Shown: one piece after another, positions 8,820-20,158 of the stretch
Layout: every line of letters starts with the position of its first letter
Numbering within the stretch: position 1 is the stretch's first letter
Source of the DNA: Dehalococcoidia bacterium
Lineage (GTDB): Bacteria; Chloroflexota; Dehalococcoidia; SM23-28-2; WHTN01
Assembly: GCA_009377715.1 (NCBI GenBank)
Contig: WHTN01000004.1
Location: 4,753 to 68,752, forward strand
DNA: 64,000 nucleotides
Direction of reading: 5' to 3'
The notes under the pieces: generated by a model
Seen by the model: the letters and a program-made list of their open reading frames with translations, nothing else
Databases searched by the model: none
Told to the model about the DNA's origin: nothing
Translations under genes and position numbers: made by a program

Positions 8820-10664
8820 ATGAGTCGCATACCTCCTCCTCGCCGTCCCCGCCCCTCGCTTGCAAGGGGGGGAGCAGTCGAACGCCGCCACGAAAGTGGA
8901 GATCCGGTCCCTTTTATAATCGGCGGCGTAATAGTTTTTCTGGCTATCTTGATCTTAGTCCTGTTTCTGCCGCCGTTCTCACTACTCGGGGATGGCGGAG
9001 ACGACGATGGCGACCAGGTATCGACCTCTTCCGGTCTTACATTCAACACCAGCGAGCAACTGCCTGCGTTACCGGATAACCTTGTTGCCGTCAGCCCGCA
9101 CTTATCGGATATCAGGGTGCCCTCCAATCTAACTGATGGGCAGGTCCTCATCAGGATCCGGCTAACCCGTCCCGTCCAGGACGCTTCCAACATCGGCTTC
9201 TATACGTTCGAAGATAACCAGTGGAGCCGTATAGGCGGGGCGTCCCTATCCGAGGACAGACGTGAGGCGCTAGCAGAGTTCGACGAAGTCCCGTCAAACC
9301 TCGCCGTGTTGCAGCTTTCCGGCGCGGCTTTGCAAGTTACTGCCTGGCTGCCCCAGGGCGCAACAGTTAAACAAGAGGCGCAAAGCGTAATAAACGTATT
9401 AAACCCTCTTGGCCTCACTCCAAGAAGCGATGGCAGCGTCTCCGGCAACCTCGGCCAGTTACCCGCTGGATCTTTCCAAGTCCAGCCGGCCCTCCGAGCC
9501 ATCGATGGTGAGGCGGCAAGCGCCGTAACTGCAATACTATCGAATTCAGGGGCGACCCAGCAGCATATCGAGGCGATAGCGAATATCGCCCGACAAGGCG
9601 ACTATAGCGGCATCGATATCGATTACCGCTCTCTCGAAGTAGTGGAGAGACAACAGTTCACCGACTTCATAACGCGACTAGCGCAGCGACTCCACGACGA
9701 TGGCCGCTCCCTAAGCGTGACGCTGCCGCTGCCACAACGGCAAGGCGATATGTGGCGGACCGGCGCCTACGACTGGCCAGCGATAGGCCAAGCCGCGGAT
9801 GTCGTCAAAATCGTGTCCGAACAAGACCAGTCGATCTACAGATCGGTCATGACGGATGTTCTGACCTTCGCTACGGGCGAAGTCCCTGCGAGCAAACTGT
9901 TCCTGATACTGAGCCCCTTCAGCCACGAACGCACCCCCAACGGGATACGTTCGCTTTCGTTCGTCGAAGCTCTCGGCACGGCAACCGTAATGAGCGTAAG
10001 AAGCCCGATGGGCCCGATAAGCACCGGCACGCGCGTTACCGTAACCGGCGATAACATCTATCGCCCAGACGGTGCAACTGGCATCCGTTGGGACGAGGAC
10101 GCCTCTATAGTAAGCTTCTCTTTCCGCTCAAATAACGAGGAGCACACCATCTGGGTCGAGAACTCGTTCAGCATCGCGTTTAAACTCGATCTAGTCCGCT
10201 CCTTCGGGCTGGGCGGGGTAGCGATCGAAGATGCTTCCGACAGTGCAGGAGGCGCCGATATATGGTCGACCGTGGCTAATTCGGTAGCGGGCAGTCTAAC
10301 TCTCGCCAGGCCACACCCGGACAACCTGAGGGCAACGTGGGAAGCCGAACAGGGCGCTATAGAGGCAGGGACCAGCGGGCAAGCAGCAACATGGACTGCC
10401 CCGGACCGTGCCGGAACATATCAGGTCGCCCTTATCGTCGGCGACGGCGTTGCCAGGGTCGGGCGAAGGCTCGATCTTCAGGTGGGCGGTGGCGCGAGCA
10501 CGCCCGCTCCCACAACGGCCGCTACGCCCGTATCGACCGTAGCACCGACTACAATCGCGACGGCTACTCCCGTGCCCACCGCCGAGCTAACGATCGAACC
10601 TACAGCGACGCCTGAACCGACGCCAGAGCCTACCCCTTCACCAACGCCAACCCCTACACCGTAA
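8820..10664 (+). CDS. membrane-anchored GH18-like (chitinase-fold) domain protein with Ig-like segment and Pro/Thr-rich C-terminal tail
   Basis: TM helix IIGGVIVFLAILILVLFL; GH18-like ..YSGIDIDYRSLE.. with Arg where the DxxDxDxE catalytic Glu sits; GLGGV motif; PT-rich tail at ~10490-10661. Confidence 0.7.
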   Translation: MSRIPPPRRPRPSLARGGAVERRHESGDPVPFIIGGVIVFLAILILVLFLPPFSLLGDGGDDDGDQVSTSSGLTFNTSEQLPALPDNLVAVSPHLSDIRVPSNLTDGQVLIRIRLTRPVQDASNIGFYTFEDNQWSRIGGASLSEDRREALAEFDEVPSNLAVLQLSGAALQVTAWLPQGATVKQEAQSVINVLNPLGLTPRSDGSVSGNLGQLPAGSFQVQPALRAIDGEAASAVTAILSNSGATQQHIEAIANIARQGDYSGIDIDYRSLEVVERQQFTDFITRLAQRLHDDGRSLSVTLPLPQRQGDMWRTGAYDWPAIGQAADVVKIVSEQDQSIYRSVMTDVLTFATGEVPASKLFLILSPFSHERTPNGIRSLSFVEALGTATVMSVRSPMGPISTGTRVTVTGDNIYRPDGATGIRWDEDASIVSFSFRSNNEEHTIWVENSFSIAFKLDLVRSFGLGGVAIEDASDSAGGADIWSTVANSVAGSLTLARPHPDNLRATWEAEQGAIEAGTSGQAATWTAPDRAGTYQVALIVGDGVARVGRRLDLQVGGGASTPAPTTAATPVSTVAPTTIATATPVPTAELTIEPTATPEPTPEPTPSPTPTPTP

Positions 10665-12254: not shown

Positions 12255-13200
12255 TCAATTTAAGAAGTTTATAGCTCTTTGAGCTAGACACCCCTCATCG
12301 CATCCACATGTCGAAGTTCTGCGTTGCTCTAAGCGACACTGGCCTAAAAACGGCGATAACTCTAGTACTTCTCCCAGAGACTTACGAAACACGTTATCGT
12401 AATCAGACTCAGAAGGCCTCGGCTCAACGTTGTGACAAGGACTAATCCAACCGTCCCATCGCACCACAAGCTCTTTAGCGATCGCCACGCATTTGTTCGG
12501 CTCACGATAGCGAGCAAGTGTCGCCTCTCCAAGTCGAACGCGAACATGAGCTTTATCACCGATCATATCGATATGCTCTCTGAGTAGCTCGAAAGGCACA
12601 AAAAAGGCTGTCTCCCTTGGTAGCTGCTCTGCCTTGCGGCACACTCGTCAATATGCGTAGTTCATGAATTCCCAATTCATCGCAAAGAGTTGCTGCTTGG
12701 AGTAGATCAGTCAAGTTGCCGGGGTATGCGAAGAAGGTACACGTAACATTGATTCCAGCCTTGACCATATTTTTAACTGCGAGACATGTCGCTTCAAAAC
12801 TCCCTTGTATCCGAGTTAATGCATCGTGACGAGCAGCCAGCCCAGAATGAAGAGATACACGGCACAGATCGACCCAATTCTTCATCTCAAGCGCTCTTGA
12901 GGAGTCAATCGGAACCAGCCGATATGACGAGTCGAAAAGGACACCCATTGAGAACAATATGGTATTTAACCCGCAGACCTTTGAGCACTCTAGAATTGAG
13001 TGTAGTGATTCATGAAGCAACGGTTCGCCACCTGTAACGATTAGGCTTTGCCCACCTTGGTCTTTAAATTCCTTAATGAGTTTGCAGGCAACGGTATGAT
13101 CCATTTTCTGAGTTCTGCGTAACCCGGCTGATACAGAGCAGTGCCCGCACGCTAATGGACACTGCTGCGTAATCTCCAACCGTAAAGTATCAATTGTGTA
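12255..13200 (-). pseudogene. radical SAM / SPASM-domain enzyme, frame-disrupted (ORF-track pieces 12556..13257 and 12255..12644)
   Basis: CPLACGHC (CxxxCxxC) and TGGEPLL in N-terminal piece; Cys-rich twitch/SPASM-like C-terminus (WDGWISPCHNVEP...CGCDEGC) in another frame; shift within ~12600-12645 next to an A6 run at ~12600-12605; start trimmed to the internal Met. Confidence 0.7.
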
Positions 13201-13777
13201 CATCTGCGGTACTCGATAATAATTGGCGTATGGCAGTGATTGCTTCAAGCCTTGCATCTGTCGAAACTACGACCAATTCGCCAACTTGAAGATCGCACTC
13301 GCGTGCTACCAACCGCTGCAGTCTTGCGAGTCCCACGAAATTGCTATATGCCTTACTGTGGTAATGTTGACTGCGGTACGTTGCTGTCATTATGAGTTCA
13401 CCATCGCGCTGGTGAAATTGAATCGATGAGAGACATGGAAACCCTCTGTTCGCCGCAGCTGAAGTTGATGGCCTACCGAAAAGAATTGGCCGTGGATCGA
13501 CTCCACTTCGGCGCAACGAACGAATGATTCTTACAATTTGATTGACCTTGCCACTCCCGTCATAGTCAACCATTCGCACAAAATAATTGCGGCTATCCAT
13601 TTTCCTTATAAGGCGCTGCGCAGCCTTTTCCCAATTGCTTGCCTCGATCACGGAAATCGGCATTATAGTACGGGCTACGGCACGCATACTGTGTGAGGCG
13701 TCTAGCGATAAAGCCCGATCTATAAGGACACCGCGCTCATCCTCAAAAGACGAAGGTCTTTCTATGCTTACTACCAA
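13190..13777 (-). CDS. thymidylate-synthase-fold protein, 3' portion of a gene interrupted by the IS1595-family insertion
   Basis: alignable by eye to ThyA core: ..GFPCLSSIQFHQRDGELIMTATYRSQHY..SNF..ARECDLQVGELVVVSTD.. vs E. coli ..[46 protein letters not shown]..; begins at TTG 4 nt from the IS left end. Confidence 0.6.
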   Translation of the reverse strand: MVVSIERPSSFEDERGVLIDRALSLDASHSMRAVARTIMPISVIEASNWEKAAQRLIRKMDSRNYFVRMVDYDGSGKVNQIVRIIRSLRRSGVDPRPILFGRPSTSAAANRGFPCLSSIQFHQRDGELIMTATYRSQHYHSKAYSNFVGLARLQRLVARECDLQVGELVVVSTDARLEAITAIRQLLSSTADVHN

Positions 13778-13854
13778 ATTAGGGTAATAATCTAGTTGAC
13801 TCAGTAGAAAAGTCGCTCTATGATTGCTTTAATCTTATTAGCCTGTGGGAGATT

Positions 13855-14610
13855 ATGCAGTCATTTAGCGGTTTTGATTTGTTCGGTTTGGGGCAATTCA
13901 TCACCGCGCTAACGGAAGGGGAAGGGCAGCGCATAATCCCAGAAGACACGCGCCATCAGATGGAGCAGGCTGCGCGGCAGGCCCGGCGGACATGCATTCT
14001 TTGTGGTTTTCCCGCAACGGCTGCTGGACTCGCAAGACTAATTGCCGACCTGCAAGCTCCAATAACTGAGGAGCAGGTCACGATAGGAGGGAGGTATTGC
14101 TTCCAGGCTCTAACGGATGAAGCAGGCGCTAGATTATTTCTTTACATGGGCGAGAGTCGTAGGTATTACTATGAGTCCCCATCAGAAGGATGGAACGATG
14201 TGTTAGAGAAGTTTCCGTCAGCGCGGCTCGACATAGAGGAAGCCAGCAAATGTTACGCATTAGCCCGGTATACAGCTTCTGTGTTCCATTCGATGCGGAT
14301 ACTAGAGCCAGCGTTGAATGCGCTTGCTGGCGAGTTTGCTGTGTCTACGGATAGGGCAAACTGGCATAACATCCTAGATCAGGTCGTTGCCGCTATTGAA
14401 CAAAAGAGTAAGGCGCAAGGGGCTGGGTGGACAGACCAACAGTTCTATTCGGAGGCGGCTGTAGACCTACGTTTCTTCAAGGACGCGTGGCGCAATCACG
14501 TAATGCACGTACGAAAGACCTTTGATGAAGAAAGAGCGTTAGGTATTTACCAGCGGGTCCGCGACTTAATGAGGCACTTATCTACCAAACTAAGCGAGCC
14601 ACCCCTATGA
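13855..14610 (+). CDS. passenger gene of the IS: hypothetical protein with a possible HEPN-like R-x4-H motif (WRNHVMH)
   Basis: 251-aa ORF between IR-L and transposase; the single R-N-x3-H motif near the C-terminus is the only HEPN evidence. Confidence 0.5.
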   Translation: MQSFSGFDLFGLGQFITALTEGEGQRIIPEDTRHQMEQAARQARRTCILCGFPATAAGLARLIADLQAPITEEQVTIGGRYCFQALTDEAGARLFLYMGESRRYYYESPSEGWNDVLEKFPSARLDIEEASKCYALARYTASVFHSMRILEPALNALAGEFAVSTDRANWHNILDQVVAAIEQKSKAQGAGWTDQQFYSEAAVDLRFFKDAWRNHVMHVRKTFDEERALGIYQRVRDLMRHLSTKLSEPPL

Positions 14611-14759
14611 CTTGTCCCGCACCTCATCCTTCGGCTCTCGTATTGCTTCCTTCGGCACGCGGACTATCTTGCGCGTCAACCGCTCAAATCGTTCCCATGC
14701 CGTCTCCGGCGTGCCCTTCGGTTTCTTGGGGTCATTTGCCATGTTTCCCCCTTCCCTGT

Positions 14760-15719
14760 CTACGTTGGCGTCGTAGCGTCTCCTATAAGCTCTGCGTAGG
14801 TCAATCGCTTGCCTGTAATCCTCTTAGCGAGCCGCAGGAAGCGCTCGCCGTCGGTTGCCCTTCGACTGTTGAATCGAAAGGCTTCTTCATCAAGATAACG
14901 GAAAAGGTGGAACGGCTCTACGCTTACATAGGTGCCTTTGATAGCACGTTTCAAGAGGCTCCAGAAATTCTCAATGCCGTTGACGTGAATCCTGCCTTCG
15001 ACGTACTTCTCCGCGTGGTCAATAACACCATGAATATAATCCATCTTCAAGTCATCATAAGAGCGAAACGCGTCTGTAAAGACCTCAGCGCCTTCCTTAG
15101 CCTGACTGCGGACTTGCCCGCTCAGGGCATGGCGGCGACGATTCGCTACGATGGTAGTCCTGACGGTGCTGTGTCCGTCTGGCCCGTGACGCTCCAAAAG
15201 GCCCATGACTGCAACTTTGCCAGTGGCCCAGGTACCAGTAATCTTCTCCGCTCGCTTGTCCTTGTGCATGAAGCGGGCCTTGCCACCGATAAAGGTTTCA
15301 TCGACTTCGATGATGCCGTCCATCTTAGTGTAGTCATCGGACTGCATAGCGAGCCGTATGCGATGGAGCATAAACCAAGCGGTTGTTTGAGTCACGCCGA
15401 GAGCACGGGCCAATTCATAGGAGCTAATACCGTTCTTGTCGTTGGCAATAAGCCACAAGGAAGGAAGCCACCTGTCCAGACCGATAGGGCTGTCCTCAAA
15501 GATAGTCCCTACCTTGACCGAGAACTGCCGTTTGGCGTGCTTGTCCTTGCACTCCCACAGTTGGCGAGTAGAGATGTAACGCGCATCGGTTCGGCCACAA
15601 TTAGGGCACGCGATAACGCCATCGGGCCATCGCATCGCGAGCATAAACTTTTGACAAGTCTCAGGGTCAGAAAAGAACTTAATCGCTTCGAGAAGGGTTG
15701 CGGGCTGGCTGTTATTCAT
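14760..15719 (-). CDS. IS1595-family transposase (ISXO2-like, N-terminal zinc ribbon + DDE domain)
   Basis: 319-aa ORF; ..MRWPDGVIACPNCG.. zinc-ribbon and ISXO2-like DDE region. Confidence 0.9.
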   Translation of the reverse strand: MNNSQPATLLEAIKFFSDPETCQKFMLAMRWPDGVIACPNCGRTDARYISTRQLWECKDKHAKRQFSVKVGTIFEDSPIGLDRWLPSLWLIANDKNGISSYELARALGVTQTTAWFMLHRIRLAMQSDDYTKMDGIIEVDETFIGGKARFMHKDKRAEKITGTWATGKVAVMGLLERHGPDGHSTVRTTIVANRRRHALSGQVRSQAKEGAEVFTDAFRSYDDLKMDYIHGVIDHAEKYVEGRIHVNGIENFWSLLKRAIKGTYVSVEPFHLFRYLDEEAFRFNSRRATDGERFLRLAKRITGKRLTYAELIGDATTPT

Positions 15720-15784
15720 GGCTTTTACTCCTTACAGCCACATTATAACCCAGATAGCTTACTGAGTCAACTAGGTTATTACCC

Positions 15785-15945
15785 AAATTAGATACTCGAT
15801 GATCCTTGGTTTCGAGAAGACAGCTTATAGCTGTTTGCCACGCAGGCCATATATCTGTTTCCGGAATATACAAAGACTGTTCATGGTACAACCTCTTTAT
15901 CTGGTATAGCTTTGAAGGCGAGGCTATCTTGAAGGGCTGATTCAT
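15785..15945 (-). other. displaced 5' fragment of the ThyA-fold gene (in frame with 13777 once the IS and one AAATTA copy are removed)
   Basis: ORF 15712..15945 runs from ATG into IR-R; its frame is continuous with the TTG at 13777 across the insertion point; reconstructed product ~248 aa (ThyA is 264 aa). Confidence 0.45.
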
Positions 15946-16933
15946 CCATTCTTAGTCGTTTGGCCATCGACTGTGAAAGCACTCTGTAATAATTCAGTGG
16001 TGTCGTCTCCCCTTTGGGTGGCGTCATTTTTTTTAGGACTCTAACTGTTGAGTCATTAACTATACCCAGAGCACGCAGCCGGGCGAGTGCTGCTGCGTGG
16101 CTAATTCCATAAGAAGTTTCCATTTCAGCCAGGCTATCCAATATGAAACCTGATGCTAGATATGCTTGAATAGTTTGTCGGGGCAATAGAAGGGCTGAAG
16201 CGAAGACATCTGCTCGATATTCCATGTGCGAACGTGGGCCAGGGCGTTCCCAGCCCGCATCACAAACCGTTGTCCGTAATTCACGATCCATCAGGTAATG
16301 AGCTAATTCATGGGCAAGTGTAAAGCGCTGACGGGAACGCGGCTGGTTATAGTTGACGATTATTGAGGCAAACCTCTTCTCGTCTACGACCATACACCCT
16401 GCAACCCTGGACTTACTCGGAAAACGGGCCCCGAAGACGGCTAGGCCTAGGCGGGTTAAAAGGCCTGAAAAACCGCTTATTGGTTCATTTGGTGGGATAC
16501 CCAAATGTTTACGAATCCTGCGCGCTAGCAACTCACCGGCTTCTGTATCTGCACGAAGTGCTAAATTACGGGTTACATTCGGCGTCTCGCAGGAATCGGA
16601 GACTTGCGAAAGAGAATCATGCAAGGTAAGAAACCAAGATAAGACAGCTTGATCCTCGGGGCTAACAGGTCCAGACCGAAACCGGAAAAGATTGCTACGA
16701 CTGGCCTTTACCGATACAGTTGGTCGGGGCTTAAGTAACTCTACGACAGGACAATTTAATAGTTTGGAAATTACTGAAAGCTCGGAGGCAGTAACGCTAC
16801 GCGATCCTTGCTCAATTCGACTTATCGCAGATCTATCGACACCAAGCAACTCGGCGAGTTGTGCCTGGCTCAGGCTTTGACGATAGCGTGCTTCTTGGAT
16901 ATTGTATCCAATATCCTTATCCGAAACTCTCAT
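15881..16933 (-). CDS. fused XRE-family HTH + ImmA/IrrE-family zinc metallopeptidase (COG2856-like) regulator
   Basis: HTH ..LSQAQLAELLGVDRSAISRIEQG..; HEXXH as FTLAHELAHYLMD; start placed at internal Met (MRVSDKD) because upstream is AT-rich promoter-like DNA abutting the leuS stop. Confidence 0.8.
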   Translation of the reverse strand: MRVSDKDIGYNIQEARYRQSLSQAQLAELLGVDRSAISRIEQGSRSVTASELSVISKLLNCPVVELLKPRPTVSVKASRSNLFRFRSGPVSPEDQAVLSWFLTLHDSLSQVSDSCETPNVTRNLALRADTEAGELLARRIRKHLGIPPNEPISGFSGLLTRLGLAVFGARFPSKSRVAGCMVVDEKRFASIIVNYNQPRSRQRFTLAHELAHYLMDRELRTTVCDAGWERPGPRSHMEYRADVFASALLLPRQTIQAYLASGFILDSLAEMETSYGISHAAALARLRALGIVNDSTVRVLKKMTPPKGETTPLNYYRVLSQSMAKRLRMDESALQDSLAFKAIPDKEVVP

Positions 16934-16940
16934 TTCGGAT

Positions 16941-16970
16941 ATTATAGGCCGGTTATGATCATGGATGCAA
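16941..16970 (-). promoter_or_regulatory. candidate sigma70-type promoter for the XRE-ImmA gene (leaderless transcript)
   Basis: minus strand TTGCAT (16970-16965), 18-nt spacer, TATAAT (16946-16941), ATG 7 nt downstream. Confidence 0.35.
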
Positions 16971-17010
16971 TATTTATTTAAGAGTTTATGTGCGCATTCC
17001 ACACAGGAAA

Positions 17011-19461
17011 TTACCTCAGCACCACGTTGACCAATCGCCCCGGCACGTAGACAATCCGCTCGATGGAAGCACCACCGACGTGCGGCTGCACCTTCTCGCT
17101 GGTGAGAGCGAGCTGCTTCGCTTGCTCCTCACCGATGTCGACCGGCACGGTCAGGCGGTCGCGCAGACGGCCGTTCACCTGTACCACTAGTGTTACCTCT
17201 TCCTCGCGTGCGAGTTCGGCATCATATTCCGGCCAGGCCTGGGTATGTATCGAATACGGATGTCCGGTGTGTGCCCAAAGCTCTTCCGCGATGTGAGGCG
17301 TCAGCGGCGCGGTGAGCAGCAAGAGCGCATCGGTCGCTTCGTGCCATGCCTCAGTGTCTACAGGGCCGGCGTCGGTCGCCCTGTAGAGATGGTTCGTAAA
17401 TTCCATAAGGGCAGCGAGCGCTGTATTAAAGCGGAACCGTTCGATGTCGTTCGTGACGCGCTTGATCGTCTTGTGCGTGAAGCGCCGTAAATCTCTGGTC
17501 GCAGATTCGTCCGCGCTCGTTATGGACTCGATATGATCCTGTGTTATGTTCCAGACGCGATTCAGCCAGCGCCATATACCGCTAATGCCGTCTAGATTAA
17601 ACGGCCCGCCATCTTCCCAAGGACCGAGGAACATTAGATACGCCCGGAAGGTATCGGCGCCGTACGCGGCCACCTGTTCGTCAGGCGCGACAACGTTGCC
17701 GCGGGACTTGCTCATCCGCTGCCCGTCCGGGCCGAGGATCTGGCCCTGGTTGAATAGCCGTATGAACGGCTCATCGCCGGAAACGAGCCCTAAATCGCGC
17801 ACGACCTTCCAGAAGAAGCGGGCGTAAAGGAGGTGCATAACCGCATGCTCTGCACCGCCGGTGTACTGGTCGACGGGCAGCCACTTCGCCGCTGCGACTG
17901 ATTCGACCGGCCCATTATTGTAATGCGGGCTGGCGTAGCGGATAAAGTACCAGTTCGAGTCCAAGAAGGTGTCGATCGTATCGGTCTCGCGCTTGGCGGG
18001 CTTGCCGCACTGTGGACATATCGTATTGACGAAGCCTCCGTGGCGGGCCAGCGGCGATTCGCCGGTCGGCTTGAATTCTGCATCTTCGGGCAGCAGGACC
18101 GGCAGCTGGTCCTCCGGCACGGCGACGACGCCACAGTCCGGGCAATAGACTATCGGTATCGGACAGCCCCAGTAACGCTGGCGGGAGATGAGCCAGTCCC
18201 GTAAACGGTAGATCGTCGTTCGCCGACCCCAGCCTTGCCGCTCGATGTACTCGGAAACAGCCTGCTTCCCTTCCTCGCTCGGCGTACCGTCGAACTGGCC
18301 GGAGTTGATCATGATCCCGAGATCGACGAACGCCTCGGTGAACTCTTCGCGCTGCCAGTCGGGCGGAGAGATGACCACTTTAATGGGAAGGCCATACTTT
18401 TTGGCGAACTCGAAGTCCCGCTGGTCGTGGGCAGGCACGGCCATGACGCAGCCCGTGCCGTAAGAAAGCAGTACGTAGTCGGCGATGAAGACCGGCACGT
18501 CTTCACCGGACAGCAGGTTCTTGCAGTATGCGCCCGTGAAAACGCCGGTCTTCTCGCGCTCGGTCGAAAGCCGCTCGATCTCAGTAGCGCGCCGACTCTG
18601 TTCTACGTAAGCCTCAACCTCGGACCGGCGGTCAGGTGTAGTCAGCAACGGTACGAGCGGGTGTTCCGGCGCCAGCACCATAAACGTCACGCCGTAGACG
18701 GTGTCCGGGCGCGTCGTGAAGACGCGTATCTCCTTCTCGGAGACGCCAGGTGCATCAATGCCAAACGCTATCTCAGTCCCATAACTCTTGCCGATCCAGT
18801 TGCGTTGCATCGCCATCACGGCGTCCGGCCATTGAAGACCGCTGAAATCGAGTAGTTCGTCGGCGTAACCAGTGATCTTGCCTAGCCACTGCTCGATGTC
18901 ACGCTTGGTCACCACTGTACTGCAGCGCTCGCAAGTGCCGTCCGGCAATACCTGCTCGTTGGCCAGCACGGTCTGGTCTACAGGACACCAGTTTGCTGGA
19001 GCTTTCGCGCGGTAAACGAGGCCTTTCTCGAACATCTTTGTAAAAAACCATTGCGTCCATTTGTAATAATCGGGGAGGCAGGTTATTACCTCGCGACTCC
19101 AATCGAAGCCGGCGCCCATGGTCTTGAGCTGTCCGCGCATCCGCTCGATGTTTTCCATTGTCCAGGTGTAAGGATGGATGCCCCTCTTGATGGCCGCGTT
19201 CTCGGCCGGTAAACCGAACGCATCGAACCCCATGGGCAGCATGACGTTGTGGCCTTTCATCCTCTTGTAGCGGGCATACGTATCGGATGGGGCCATCGCG
19301 TACCAGTGGCCTACGTGCAGGTCGCCGGAGGTGTACGGGAACATCGTGAGGGCGTAGAACTCGGCCCGCGGGTCGTCGTCGCGAGCCCTGTAAATCTCAT
19401 CTTGCTCCCACTGCTGCTGCCACTTTTTTTCGATGGCAGTGGGGTTGTATCTCTCTACCAA
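17011..19461 (-). CDS. leuS: leucyl-tRNA synthetase
   Basis: class I aaRS with HIGH-type (HVGHWY) region; start moved to TTG ~19461 (GAGAGG SD 8 nt upstream, ..ERYNPTAIEKKWQ.. typical N-terminus); ORF-track start 19590 adds a 43-aa AT-rich extension. Confidence 0.9.
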   Translation of the reverse strand: MVERYNPTAIEKKWQQQWEQDEIYRARDDDPRAEFYALTMFPYTSGDLHVGHWYAMAPSDTYARYKRMKGHNVMLPMGFDAFGLPAENAAIKRGIHPYTWTMENIERMRGQLKTMGAGFDWSREVITCLPDYYKWTQWFFTKMFEKGLVYRAKAPANWCPVDQTVLANEQVLPDGTCERCSTVVTKRDIEQWLGKITGYADELLDFSGLQWPDAVMAMQRNWIGKSYGTEIAFGIDAPGVSEKEIRVFTTRPDTVYGVTFMVLAPEHPLVPLLTTPDRRSEVEAYVEQSRRATEIERLSTEREKTGVFTGAYCKNLLSGEDVPVFIADYVLLSYGTGCVMAVPAHDQRDFEFAKKYGLPIKVVISPPDWQREEFTEAFVDLGIMINSGQFDGTPSEEGKQAVSEYIERQGWGRRTTIYRLRDWLISRQRYWGCPIPIVYCPDCGVVAVPEDQLPVLLPEDAEFKPTGESPLARHGGFVNTICPQCGKPAKRETDTIDTFLDSNWYFIRYASPHYNNGPVESVAAAKWLPVDQYTGGAEHAVMHLLYARFFWKVVRDLGLVSGDEPFIRLFNQGQILGPDGQRMSKSRGNVVAPDEQVAAYGADTFRAYLMFLGPWEDGGPFNLDGISGIWRWLNRVWNITQDHIESITSADESATRDLRRFTHKTIKRVTNDIERFRFNTALAALMEFTNHLYRATDAGPVDTEAWHEATDALLLLTAPLTPHIAEELWAHTGHPYSIHTQAWPEYDAELAREEEVTLVVQVNGRLRDRLTVPVDIGEEQAKQLALTSEKVQPHVGGASIERIVYVPGRLVNVVLR

Positions 19462-19504
19462 CCTATTTACCTCTCGCTTCTTTTGCCTACGGCCTCGTTC
19501 GCCT

Positions 19505-19969
19505 TTAGCGAAGTCGATTCTGCATATATCGTACCACTGGCGCCAATCTTTCGTATGCAAAATTATACCGATTATTATCCTCTGCGCCACTGTTACCGAA
19601 TTGAGTTACGTCGTTATGCAATTCGAAAAGTTCGTCGAGAAGAGCTACGAATGCTCCGTCCAAATCGAAGTCATCGATATCGCGAGATTGGGCATTAGCA
19701 TCGTTCAAGGCGTCTCGCTTGACAGCCTCTGGCAGGATGGTGACAACCGCCCTTCGCATGGCGAAGCGGTCGATCTCTGAGCCGGTTGCGCCGACGCGGA
19801 AGCGTTCCTCTAGAATTACGAGCGAGAAGCGGTCGAAGGAGCGCCACAGTTCGAGGAACGCCCGCGGCCAGTCTCCCTGAGCAGCAGAGCTTTGAGCCGC
19901 CTGAAGCATCGTCTGCGCATCGGCCCGCATAAGACTATCTCTTGGGTTCAACACTGATTGTGAGGCCAT
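19505..19969 (-). CDS. hypothetical protein
   Basis: 154-aa ORF upstream of leuS; 3' end runs into AT-rich leader-like DNA so boundaries uncertain. Confidence 0.35.
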   Translation of the reverse strand: MASQSVLNPRDSLMRADAQTMLQAAQSSAAQGDWPRAFLELWRSFDRFSLVILEERFRVGATGSEIDRFAMRRAVVTILPEAVKRDALNDANAQSRDIDDFDLDGAFVALLDELFELHNDVTQFGNSGAEDNNRYNFAYERLAPVVRYMQNRLR

Positions 19970-20038: not shown

Positions 20039-20069
20039 TTTGACAGTCGGTACAAAGGCCACTTAAAAT
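20039..20069 (+). promoter_or_regulatory. candidate promoter of tRNA-Asp
   Basis: TTGACA (20039-20044), 19-nt spacer, TAAAAT (20064-20069), ~12 nt before the tRNA. Confidence 0.3.
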
Positions 20070-20081
20070 TAGGAACGAAGC

Positions 20082-20158
20082 GGCCCCGTGGTGTAGTGGC
20101 CTAACATATCTCCCTGTCACGGAGAAGATCGTGGGTTCGAATCCCATCGGGGTCGCCA
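20082..20158 (+). tRNA. tRNA-Asp (anticodon GTC)
   Basis: cloverleaf folded by hand: acceptor GGCCCCG/CGGGGTC, U8, D stem GTGT/ACAT, anticodon stem TCTCC/GGAGA with loop CTGTCAC, T stem GTGGG/CCCAT with TTCGAAT loop, G73, encoded CCA; followed by T-run. Confidence 0.85.

Follow-up and report, generated by a model that had tools for sequence, protein, structure and literature searches.

The 64,000-nucleotide (nt) stretch of Dehalococcoidia contig WHTN01000004.1 analyzed here (the window) carries, directly downstream of leuS, a gene for a regulator in which an XRE helix-turn-helix (HTH) domain is fused to an ImmA-type zinc peptidase. Based on comparison of this gene with its relatives, we propose, with a probability of roughly 60%, that it encodes an autoregulated, protease-cleavable repressor of the CapH-CapP/RmrA kind, translated from a leaderless mRNA and gating a conflict cassette that would modify nucleotides or DNA bases and is no longer active at this locus. 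The proposal is carried by a start codon, promoter, and palindrome that are conserved ahead of related genes, by conserved catalytic residues in the protein, and by the recurrent order of the genes that follow the regulator.

Start codon, promoter, and candidate operator

Features of the regulator locus (window coordinates, strand in brackets):
15881..16933 (−): XRE-ImmA fusion gene in the preferred 350-amino-acid (aa) reading, from ATG 16933 to the stop codon at 15881..15883
16941..16946 (−): −10 hexamer TATAAT, ending 7 nt before ATG 16933
16965..16970 (−): −35-like hexamer TTGCAT, matching the consensus TTGACA at three of six positions, with TTG kept
16989..17005 (no strand): candidate operator, the 17-bp palindrome TGTGTGGAATGCGCACA, reading TGTGC-N7-GCACA with one mismatch and centered at −64 from the ATG
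17000..17002 (−): GTG of a longer, 373-aa open reading frame (ORF), annotated in the NCBI record (P0114) and judged not to be a start
17011..19590 (−): leuS, the upstream housekeeping neighbor, with Pfam LeuRS editing, catalytic, and anticodon-binding domains

Upstream of the internal ATG (16933..16931, encoding the N-terminus MRVSDKD), TTGCAT and TATAAT are separated by an 18-nt spacer, and 7 nt (atccgaa) lie between TATAAT and the ATG, exactly as the first-pass annotation of this DNA had placed them. The composite pattern TTG-N21-TATAAT-N7-ATG occurs once in the window and in none of 100 shuffled sequences; TATAAT alone is at chance level (17 found vs. 18.3 expected). A generic promoter scan did not list the site, because its −35 element matches the consensus at only half of its positions; support beyond chance comes from the conservation of the layout in relatives. 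We compared ten loci (the window, L002-L008, L017, and L018), whose upstream regions share no obvious similarity apart from the promoter and palindrome elements. In nine loci, a TAnnnT hexamer ends 6 nt short of the start codon (7 nt for the window copy), whereas the background rate of TAnnnT at that distance from any ATG/GTG in these sequences is 1.27%; TTG lies 16-18 nt upstream of the −10 element in eight loci. The first base of the start codon is a purine throughout, and no Shine-Dalgarno or GGAGG-like motif was found in the 6-7 nt before the ten start codons. This layout persists at 37-45% protein identity and beside differing upstream genes. Since the −10 hexamer is placed 6-7 nt from the start codon, transcription would begin on or next to the A of the ATG, and the regulator mRNA is apparently leaderless. 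The leaderless-type geometry first read from the window is conserved in nine of ten loci, and an apparently leaderless, conserved promoter can now be defined for one clade of fused HTH-peptidase regulators.

The palindrome TGTGC-N7-GCACA lies upstream of the −35 element in all ten loci. Seven relatives carry perfect copies, where 0.14 would be expected by chance in the 122 kb searched; the copy in the window departs from the palindrome by one mismatch, and those of two further loci by two each. Across the 64 kb, the window copy is the only site with at most one mismatch; it starts 5 nt past the leuS stop codon and contains the GTG of the longer ORF. The palindrome is centered at −59/−60 in six loci, at −64 in the window, and at −48/−49 in three, such that the two main position classes are about one helical turn apart. 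A search for autoregulatory operator repeats around 16935-17000 had been suggested by the first-pass annotation, and this palindrome was found close by, at 16989..17005; it constitutes a defined candidate operator for one clade of fused regulators. Within the cassettes, no extra copies better than chance were found. In relatives whose HTH and peptidase are encoded by separate genes (see below), TGTGC-N7-GCACA is absent and other palindromes occur instead, which suggests that the operators of these split-gene relatives diverged together with their HTH proteins. Several of these loci (L019-L025, L012, and L014) have other 15-17-bp palindromes upstream of the first operon gene, for example TGTCTGAAAAACAGACA at L020, TGTCAGAAAATGCGACA at L019, and GTCGGAAAATCCGAC at L012.

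Relatives also favor the short start. A word-indexed protein search with the regulator returned 91 relatives, and in an alignment of the eight closest (37-45% identity), the annotated start methionine of six aligns with the internal ATG at 16933. P0003 starts two residues inside this position; P0006 has a longer annotated N-terminus but carries a methionine at the same position; and the DNA of P0009 places the −10 box within its annotated N-terminal extension. The 350-aa form is likewise the independent gene call on L001, a Logan contig that differs from the window by a single substitution and a single added base. None of the aligned relatives has a counterpart of the 23 residues by which the 373-aa form is longer, and the preference for the internal ATG expressed in the first-pass annotation is upheld by this comparison.

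It is conceivable that the 373-aa ORF from GTG 17002 is nevertheless the real gene, read through from leuS, with the promoter-like site a chance match inside coding sequence. This form is the one annotated in the NCBI record, and no terminator-like site was found between leuS and the regulator gene, so read-through transcripts probably exist; the gap of 8 nt between the leuS stop codon (17011..17013) and the long-ORF GTG, previously noted, is borne out on the minus strand. We nonetheless consider this reading very improbable: its extension is not conserved, the −10-to-start-codon spacing is kept in nine of ten loci, no Shine-Dalgarno sequence was found before its GTG, and the G+C content shifts exactly at that point. 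The palindrome provides independent evidence against the long start, which is disfavored because its GTG sits inside an element kept in ten loci with unrelated upstream genes. We therefore reject the long start on alignment, palindrome position, and conserved −10 spacing, and the comparison corrects the deposited 373-aa annotation.

The regulator protein

Features of the protein (window coordinates, residue numbers of the 350-aa form):
16736..16900 (−): XRE HTH domain, aa 12-66, from Pfam HTH_3 and Foldseek
16076..16375 (−): M78/ImmA-IrrE zinc peptidase domain, from Pfam, conservation, and Foldseek
16298..16312 (−): HELAH motif, with H208, E209, and H212
16676..16681 (−): Phe85-Arg86, putative cleavage site after the HTH domain

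The fusion of an HTH_XRE domain to an ImmA-type HEXXH peptidase, originally recognized from the sequence alone, is now supported by agreement among Pfam, PADLOC, and PDB profile matches. In the numbering of the 373-aa form, Pfam HTH_3 covers aa 35-89 (4e-13) and Peptidase_M78 covers aa 210-309 (6e-15), and the motif FTLAHELAHYLMD is present in the fusion protein. In PADLOC, the regulator matches 14 RmrA models best (E values down to 4e-29, over aa 33-326), with a capP match at 4e-25; NCBIfam returns the spr1629 repressor/antitoxin family, and PHROG 2439 ("transcriptional regulator") matches over the full length (1.7e-45). A profile built from 85 homologues matches 9vzy, a solved 393-aa fused protein for which no paper was found in the literature, over the full length (4e-38), followed by CapP (5e-19) and IrrE (6e-18).

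An AlphaFold2 (AF2) model of the regulator has a predicted local distance difference test score (pLDDT) of 89 and a predicted template modeling score (pTM) of 0.89, the latter of which points to one compact body; the loop that runs from HExxH to the third ligand is modeled with low confidence. In Foldseek comparisons, the peptidase part resembles IrrE (3dti and 3dte, E 8e-4 to 3e-4) and CapP (7t5t), and the HTH domain resembles the restriction-modification C-proteins C.BclI and C.AhdI and the phage repressor P22 c2 (root-mean-square deviation 1.1-1.3), as well as SinR. Residue conservation was taken over the 85 fused homologues, in which H208 and H212 are invariant and E209 and E238 are each retained by at least 90% of the proteins (by 83 in the case of E238); E238 is likely the third zinc ligand. 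Arg86, about 20 residues past the HTH domain, is also invariant (85/85); the residue before it is F, L, Y, or M in 65 homologues, and split systems retain the same Arg in their stand-alone HTH proteins. Because CapH is cut at F82|R83 (Calloji et al. 2026, PMC13228613) and Arg86 is conserved, F85|R86 is a reasonable candidate cleavage site, and the hydrophobic-Arg86 pair represents a candidate self-cleavage motif shared by fused proteins and split HTH partners. Twelve residues past HExxH, C224 lies in a loop like that of the CapP cysteine switch; this cysteine occurs only in the nine close homologues.

No GAF domain was detected after the peptidase by Pfam, in the AF2 model, or by Foldseek. Only about 60 residues follow the peptidase domain, modeled as short helices and strands, and the Foldseek alignments to IrrE and CapP span only ~170 columns. 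In CapP and IrrE, a GAF domain forms the groove that senses single-stranded DNA (ssDNA). De-repression after DNA damage, as proposed in the first-pass annotation, is for this protein no more than an analogy.

The cassette in relatives and its state in the window

We scored cassette contexts with hidden Markov models (HMMs) built for the partner genes. In 12 independent loci, the fused XRE-ImmA gene is followed directly by a ThyA-like gene of 230-245 aa, which often overlaps the regulator gene by 1-4 nt, an arrangement of translational coupling or overlap. A UDG-superfamily gene (~210 aa) is present in ten of these loci, on the opposite strand wherever found; its product has GEAPG and HPS motifs, a Pfam UDG match below the cutoff (1e-4), and weak PDB matches to SMUG-type glycosylases. 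The fourth gene encodes MazG plus MazG_C in seven loci and a radical SAM/SPASM protein in the window, L003, and L004. An AF2 model of a ThyA-like homologue (pLDDT 91) has the ThyA/MilA fold, and Foldseek matches it to MilA (CMP-hydroxymethylase, 2e-10), ThyA, and the phage dCMP hydroxylase AfhB; the cysteine of its GFPCLS motif is invariant in five close members and kept in at least 90% of a wider set of 20. The cassettes neighbor Cas3, Type ISP restriction enzymes, HicAB, a dCTP-deaminase-like gene, and transposases. L002, the locus of the closest homologue, is without a cassette and adjoins cas3. None of the cassette partner proteins matches PADLOC 2.0, and no description of a cassette of fused XRE-ImmA, minimal ThyA-like, UDG-like, and MazG_C or radical SAM genes was found in a literature search that did not reach Burroughs 2015 or Iyer 2013.

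Some of these loci call for comment of their own. The nearest cassette that carries an organism name belongs to a Dehalococcoidia metagenome-assembled genome. Apparent frameshifts occur in ThyA-like, MazG_C, or regulator genes at L004 (9044..9768), L009, L011 (1808..2678), and L018 (548..1593); L011 and L018 are low-coverage long-read contigs (1x or 2x by their names), whose frameshifts may be sequencing errors and not decay. At L005, the gene call at 9823..10482 (+) (219 aa, Arg-rich) is probably wrong, and a UDG-like gene lies on the minus strand at 9823..10458.

The ThyA-like family extends far beyond this clade. A full HMMER scan yields 403 representative clusters at E ≤ 1e-30 and 1040 at E ≤ 1e-10, in which the members with a source name are all labeled "hypothetical protein"; it overturns the impression of a tiny family given by the word-indexed search (22 clusters, one genome locus, and two metagenome loci). 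By tblastn, the family is found on 20 plasmids from Actinomycetota, Alpha- and Betaproteobacteria, Cyanobacteriota, and one haloarchaeon. In all seven annotated plasmid loci (L019-L025, from Mycobacterium, Sulfitobacter, Streptomyces, Rhizobium, Haloarcula, Burkholderia, and Nostoc), the ThyA-like gene forms a co-directional operon with separate HTH and ImmA/IrrE peptidase genes. In six, the order is a small ORF (or acyl carrier protein, ACP), HTH, ImmA/IrrE, a papain-like C1 peptidase (in four), and ThyA-like; in the Mycobacterium plasmid, the HTH and ImmA genes come after the ThyA-like gene. Companions at these loci include UDG, MazG/MazG_C, 5-hydroxymethyldeoxyuridine (5-hmdU) DNA kinase (HMUDK_hel 2.5e-112), and ACP/phosphopantetheinyl-transferase genes. 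The metagenomic loci L012-L016 show the same separate HTH and ImmA arrangement with the ThyA-like gene. By sequence comparison, the fused regulator of the window clade corresponds to two adjacent genes elsewhere, and the linkage of XRE and ImmA to the ThyA-like gene is old and tight. An origin of the family in phages was considered and set aside, as no ThyA-like relative was found in the viral contigs and phage genomes searched.

Features of the window cassette:
15784..15891 (−): 5′ fragment of the ThyA-like gene, ~35 codons, overlapping the end of the regulator gene and aligning to the N-termini of intact homologues
13783..15783 (−): IS1595-family insertion sequence (IS), 2001 bp, from Pfam, NCBIfam, and inverted repeats
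15784..15791 and 13775..13782: 8-bp target duplication CTAATTTG, flanking the IS
14760..15719 (−): IS1595 transposase, with DDE_Tnp_IS1595 and Zn_ribbon_IS1595 (NCBIfam transpos_IS1595, 1e-52)
13855..14610 (+): IS passenger ORF, 251 aa
13190..13774 (−): 3′ part of the ThyA-like gene, retaining the catalytic-type Cys in GFPCLS
12255..13257 (−): radical SAM/SPASM gene, frameshifted, with a T6 run near 12600-12605

The window cassette is decayed: its ThyA-like gene is interrupted by an IS, its radical SAM gene carries a frameshift, and a UDG-like gene is absent. The IS has terminal inverted repeats of 24-35 nt, and IS1595-family elements generate target duplications of 8 bp; in silico removal of the IS together with one duplication copy yields a single continuous ThyA-like ORF. 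The 3′ part of this gene matches Pfam Thymidylat_synt (PF00303) at 32.8 bits (cutoff 24.3), and it is 52% identical to its intact counterpart in L003. Two overlapping ORFs carry the Pfam Radical_SAM and SPASM matches between them; tblastn and alignment reveal one protein split over two frames, and the same frameshift is present in the independent Logan assembly. Neither tblastn nor HMM searches located a UDG-like or MazG_C gene elsewhere in the window. The earlier idea that the regulator heads a ThyA-like/radical SAM module is therefore correct for its relatives, with either radical SAM or MazG_C as the later gene, and fails for the window as it now stands, where the module has been broken by the IS and the frameshift and contains no UDG-like gene.

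Several smaller observations concern these genes. L001 has an extra G (at 2317) relative to the window at ~15880, directly after the regulator stop codon, and with it the ThyA-like 5′ fragment can start at an ATGA overlap; in the window, TTG 15891 or ATG 15945 would have to start the fragment. This 1-base difference could be a polymorphism or an assembly error. As for the radical SAM frameshift in the T6 run (~12600..12605), it may be a mutation that has become fixed, mark a site prone to slippage, or reflect a sequencing error common to both assemblies. The IS is single-copy in the window, and its passenger ORF is preceded by a promoter-like site (TTGACT-17-TATGAT, 13796..13824). Pfam, NCBIfam, PADLOC, and PDB gave no match for this ORF, and phrog_32483 (function unknown) matched it weakly. 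Two candidate roles for this opposite-strand ORF were dropped: as a fourth cassette gene or UDG-like homologue, since it lies inside the IS and the 18-24% identity alignment is spurious; and as a HEPN-like protein (RNHVMH motif), which finds no support in Pfam, PADLOC, NCBIfam, or PDB.

The island as a whole (12255..17005) begins at leuS and has a G+C content of 0.46-0.53, vs. ~0.60 outside. It is wedged between two genes, 7 nt from the stop codon of a convergent 145-aa gene and 5 nt from that of leuS, and measures ~2.7 kb without the IS; no convincing flanking direct repeats were found. About 500 nt upstream of leuS lies a tRNA gene (20082..20155, plus strand, Rfam 62.6 bits), adjoined by a strong promoter-like site (TTGACA-18-TAAAAT, 20040..20069); an Rfam scan of the window returned nothing else.

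Proposed mechanism, alternatives, and known systems

We propose that the regulator is transcribed from its own sigma-70-type promoter as an mRNA essentially without a leader or Shine-Dalgarno sequence, and that the protein would bind TGTGC-N7-GCACA as a dimer, just upstream of the −35 element, and so regulate the operon it belongs to. On the model of CapH/CapP, ImmR/ImmA, and DdrO/IrrE, the peptidase would be activated by a signal of stress or infection and would then cut the repressor part (with F85|R86 as the candidate site) and turn the operon on. We infer DNA binding, repression rather than activation, self-cleavage, and an inducing signal. In relatives, the operon runs straight on into the gene for a ThyA-like enzyme of the kind that modifies pyrimidine C5; the further products are a protein of the UDG superfamily and, depending on the locus, a nucleotide pyrophosphatase (MazG/MazG_C) or a radical SAM/SPASM protein, and the predicted output of this defense-type set is a modified nucleotide or DNA base. 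In the window, the regulator is intact but would now control little beyond itself.

Several observations weigh against this proposal. The palindrome is centered at −48 to −64 without overlapping the core promoter, and activation is therefore possible, though CapH represses from a similar place. The −35 element is weak, and at L002, which lacks the cassette, AATACT occupies the −10 position. Because no GAF domain was detected, the ssDNA or DNA-damage trigger of CapP and IrrE is not simply transferable. Finally, the regulator is always the first co-directional gene and is invariably linked to the ThyA-like gene, whereas capH/capP are divergent from their operon; such invariable linkage could mean an antitoxin-like or enzyme-processing role and not pure transcription control.

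That last point leads to the strongest competitor, in which the regulator is a RosmerTA-type antitoxin that neutralizes the ThyA-like enzyme or its companions post-translationally, with DNA binding serving only the autoregulation typical of type II toxin-antitoxin systems; on this view, the cell would have escaped addiction when the IS and the frameshift removed the partners. The near full-length matches to 14 RmrA models, the NCBIfam repressor/antitoxin assignment, and the co-directional, often overlapping ThyA-like gene are all compatible with such a role, as are the very diverse toxins with which RmrA pairs, in either gene order (PMC10440598), and the failure to obtain an rmrA deletion in the published system. 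On the other hand, neither the window neighbors nor the partners in related loci include a PADLOC RmrT match, the cassette comprises three to six genes and not two, the ThyA-like enzyme, UDG-like protein, or MazG would have to be supposed toxic, and the conserved operator and promoter layout point to at least a transcriptional role. We consider an antitoxin of this type unlikely.

Considerably less probable is that the gene encodes an immunity regulator of a prophage or integrative and conjugative element (ICE), i.e., ImmR/ImmA proper, acting on excision or lytic genes with the ThyA-like cassette as cargo, e.g., for DNA hypermodification or anti-restriction. The HTH-peptidase domain pair has ImmA/ImmR as its prototype, the PHROG 2439 match indicates that phages carry the fused form, and distant relatives lie on conjugative plasmids beside genes for MazG and 5-hmdU DNA kinase, both characteristic of thymidine hypermodification in phages (PMC8989533). 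The window island, by contrast, lies between housekeeping genes and contains no integrase, excisionase, replication, or structural genes; the searched viral contigs and phage genomes hold no ThyA-like relative; and close relatives lie among defense genes, so far as stand-alone islands of three to four genes. We thus retain the cleavable, autoregulated repressor as the preferred reading.

Among the known systems closest to this repressor is CapH/CapP, which regulates CBASS, DISARM, and further defense operons. The conserved element to which CapH binds is likewise located upstream of the −35, and fusions of CapH to CapP have been described with CBASS and DISARM (Lau et al. 2022, bioRxiv 10.1101/2022.04.27.489752). 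Shared features are the XRE HTH domain and M78 HExxH peptidase, an operator-like element upstream of the −35, defense-gene neighbors, a cysteine in the loop 12-13 residues past HExxH, a hydrophobic-Arg motif after the HTH domain, and the existence of fused forms. The window protein differs in that no GAF domain was detected, such that the CapP ssDNA groove is not evident; in that its gene is first and co-directional in its operon rather than divergent; and in its partners, which are ThyA-like, UDG-like, and MazG_C or radical SAM proteins instead of CBASS or DISARM; cleavage, moreover, is here predicted.

RmrA, the antitoxin of RosmerTA (Millman et al. 2022, bioRxiv 10.1101/2022.05.11.491447; Ernits et al. 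2023, PMC10440598), likewise combines an N-terminal HTH domain with a zinc peptidase in ~350-400 aa and gives the best PADLOC HMM matches. The window clade departs from RosmerTA in having several enzymatic partner genes and no RmrT-family partner, in place of a two-gene pair. ImmR/ImmA of ICEBs1 and DdrO/IrrE of Deinococcus share the logic of a protease-cleaved XRE repressor (here by analogy), and the peptidase fold matches IrrE; these differ in being two separate proteins, with regulons of DNA-repair or element-excision genes, and in IrrE the peptidase is followed by HTH and GAF domains. The layout of the 5′ end recalls lambda cI, which is transcribed from PRM as a leaderless repressor gene: in both, the start codon of an HTH repressor gene is the (predicted) transcription start, and operators lie near its own promoter. 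The window gene has a single recognizable operator upstream of the −35 instead of a tripartite switch, and its 5′ end is predicted from sequence.

Among defense systems, the closest parallel is DS-3/NTTI, validated in 2026, for which the passages of the DefensePredictor report that describe it (Science 2026, PMC13092281) list a 361-aa canonical thymidylate synthase (TS), a deoxynucleoside monophosphate (dNMP) kinase, a 5-hmdU kinase, TIR, and Nmad2, and no XRE/ImmA component. The same source also lists predicted, untested systems with MazG, MazG-C, UDG, and HTH, crediting an earlier prediction to Burroughs et al. 2015. As far as those passages describe it, DS-3/NTTI resembles the window clade in combining a TS-fold enzyme with nucleotide-handling enzymes in defense-type neighborhoods, and differs from it in that the clade has a 230-aa minimal ThyA-like enzyme, a UDG-like protein, and MazG_C or radical SAM behind a fused XRE-ImmA regulator. 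The window clade has no kinase, TIR, or Nmad2; HMUDK occurs only in distant relatives, and the TS fold alone is shared.

Fused HTH-M78 regulators are already known (CapH-CapP fusions, RmrA, and 9vzy), and the regulator taken alone is one more member of a well-known class, here on a dead cassette; this combination of cassette genes was not found described in the literature searched. What the comparison adds is the tight linkage of XRE and ImmA genes to an unannotated ThyA-like family that travels with UDG, MazG/MazG_C, 5-hmdU-kinase, or radical SAM genes. We tentatively suggest, as a possibility with the odds somewhat against it, that XRE and ImmA form the built-in infection or stress switch of a widespread family of modules that make or install a 5-substituted pyrimidine on demand. 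Such modules occur on plasmids of several bacterial phyla and of one archaeon and, in metagenomic contigs, among defense-type genes. In each, a minimal ThyA-like enzyme would act together with a protein of the UDG superfamily and with a third partner, which is MazG/MazG_C, a radical SAM enzyme, or a 5-hmdU kinase, and the modules may poison phage replication or mark DNA; if so, the radical SAM version would represent new chemistry within the family. As TS-containing defense has only just been validated (DefensePredictor, 2026), the intact L003, L006, and L017 cassettes are candidates for inducible nucleotide-modification defense.

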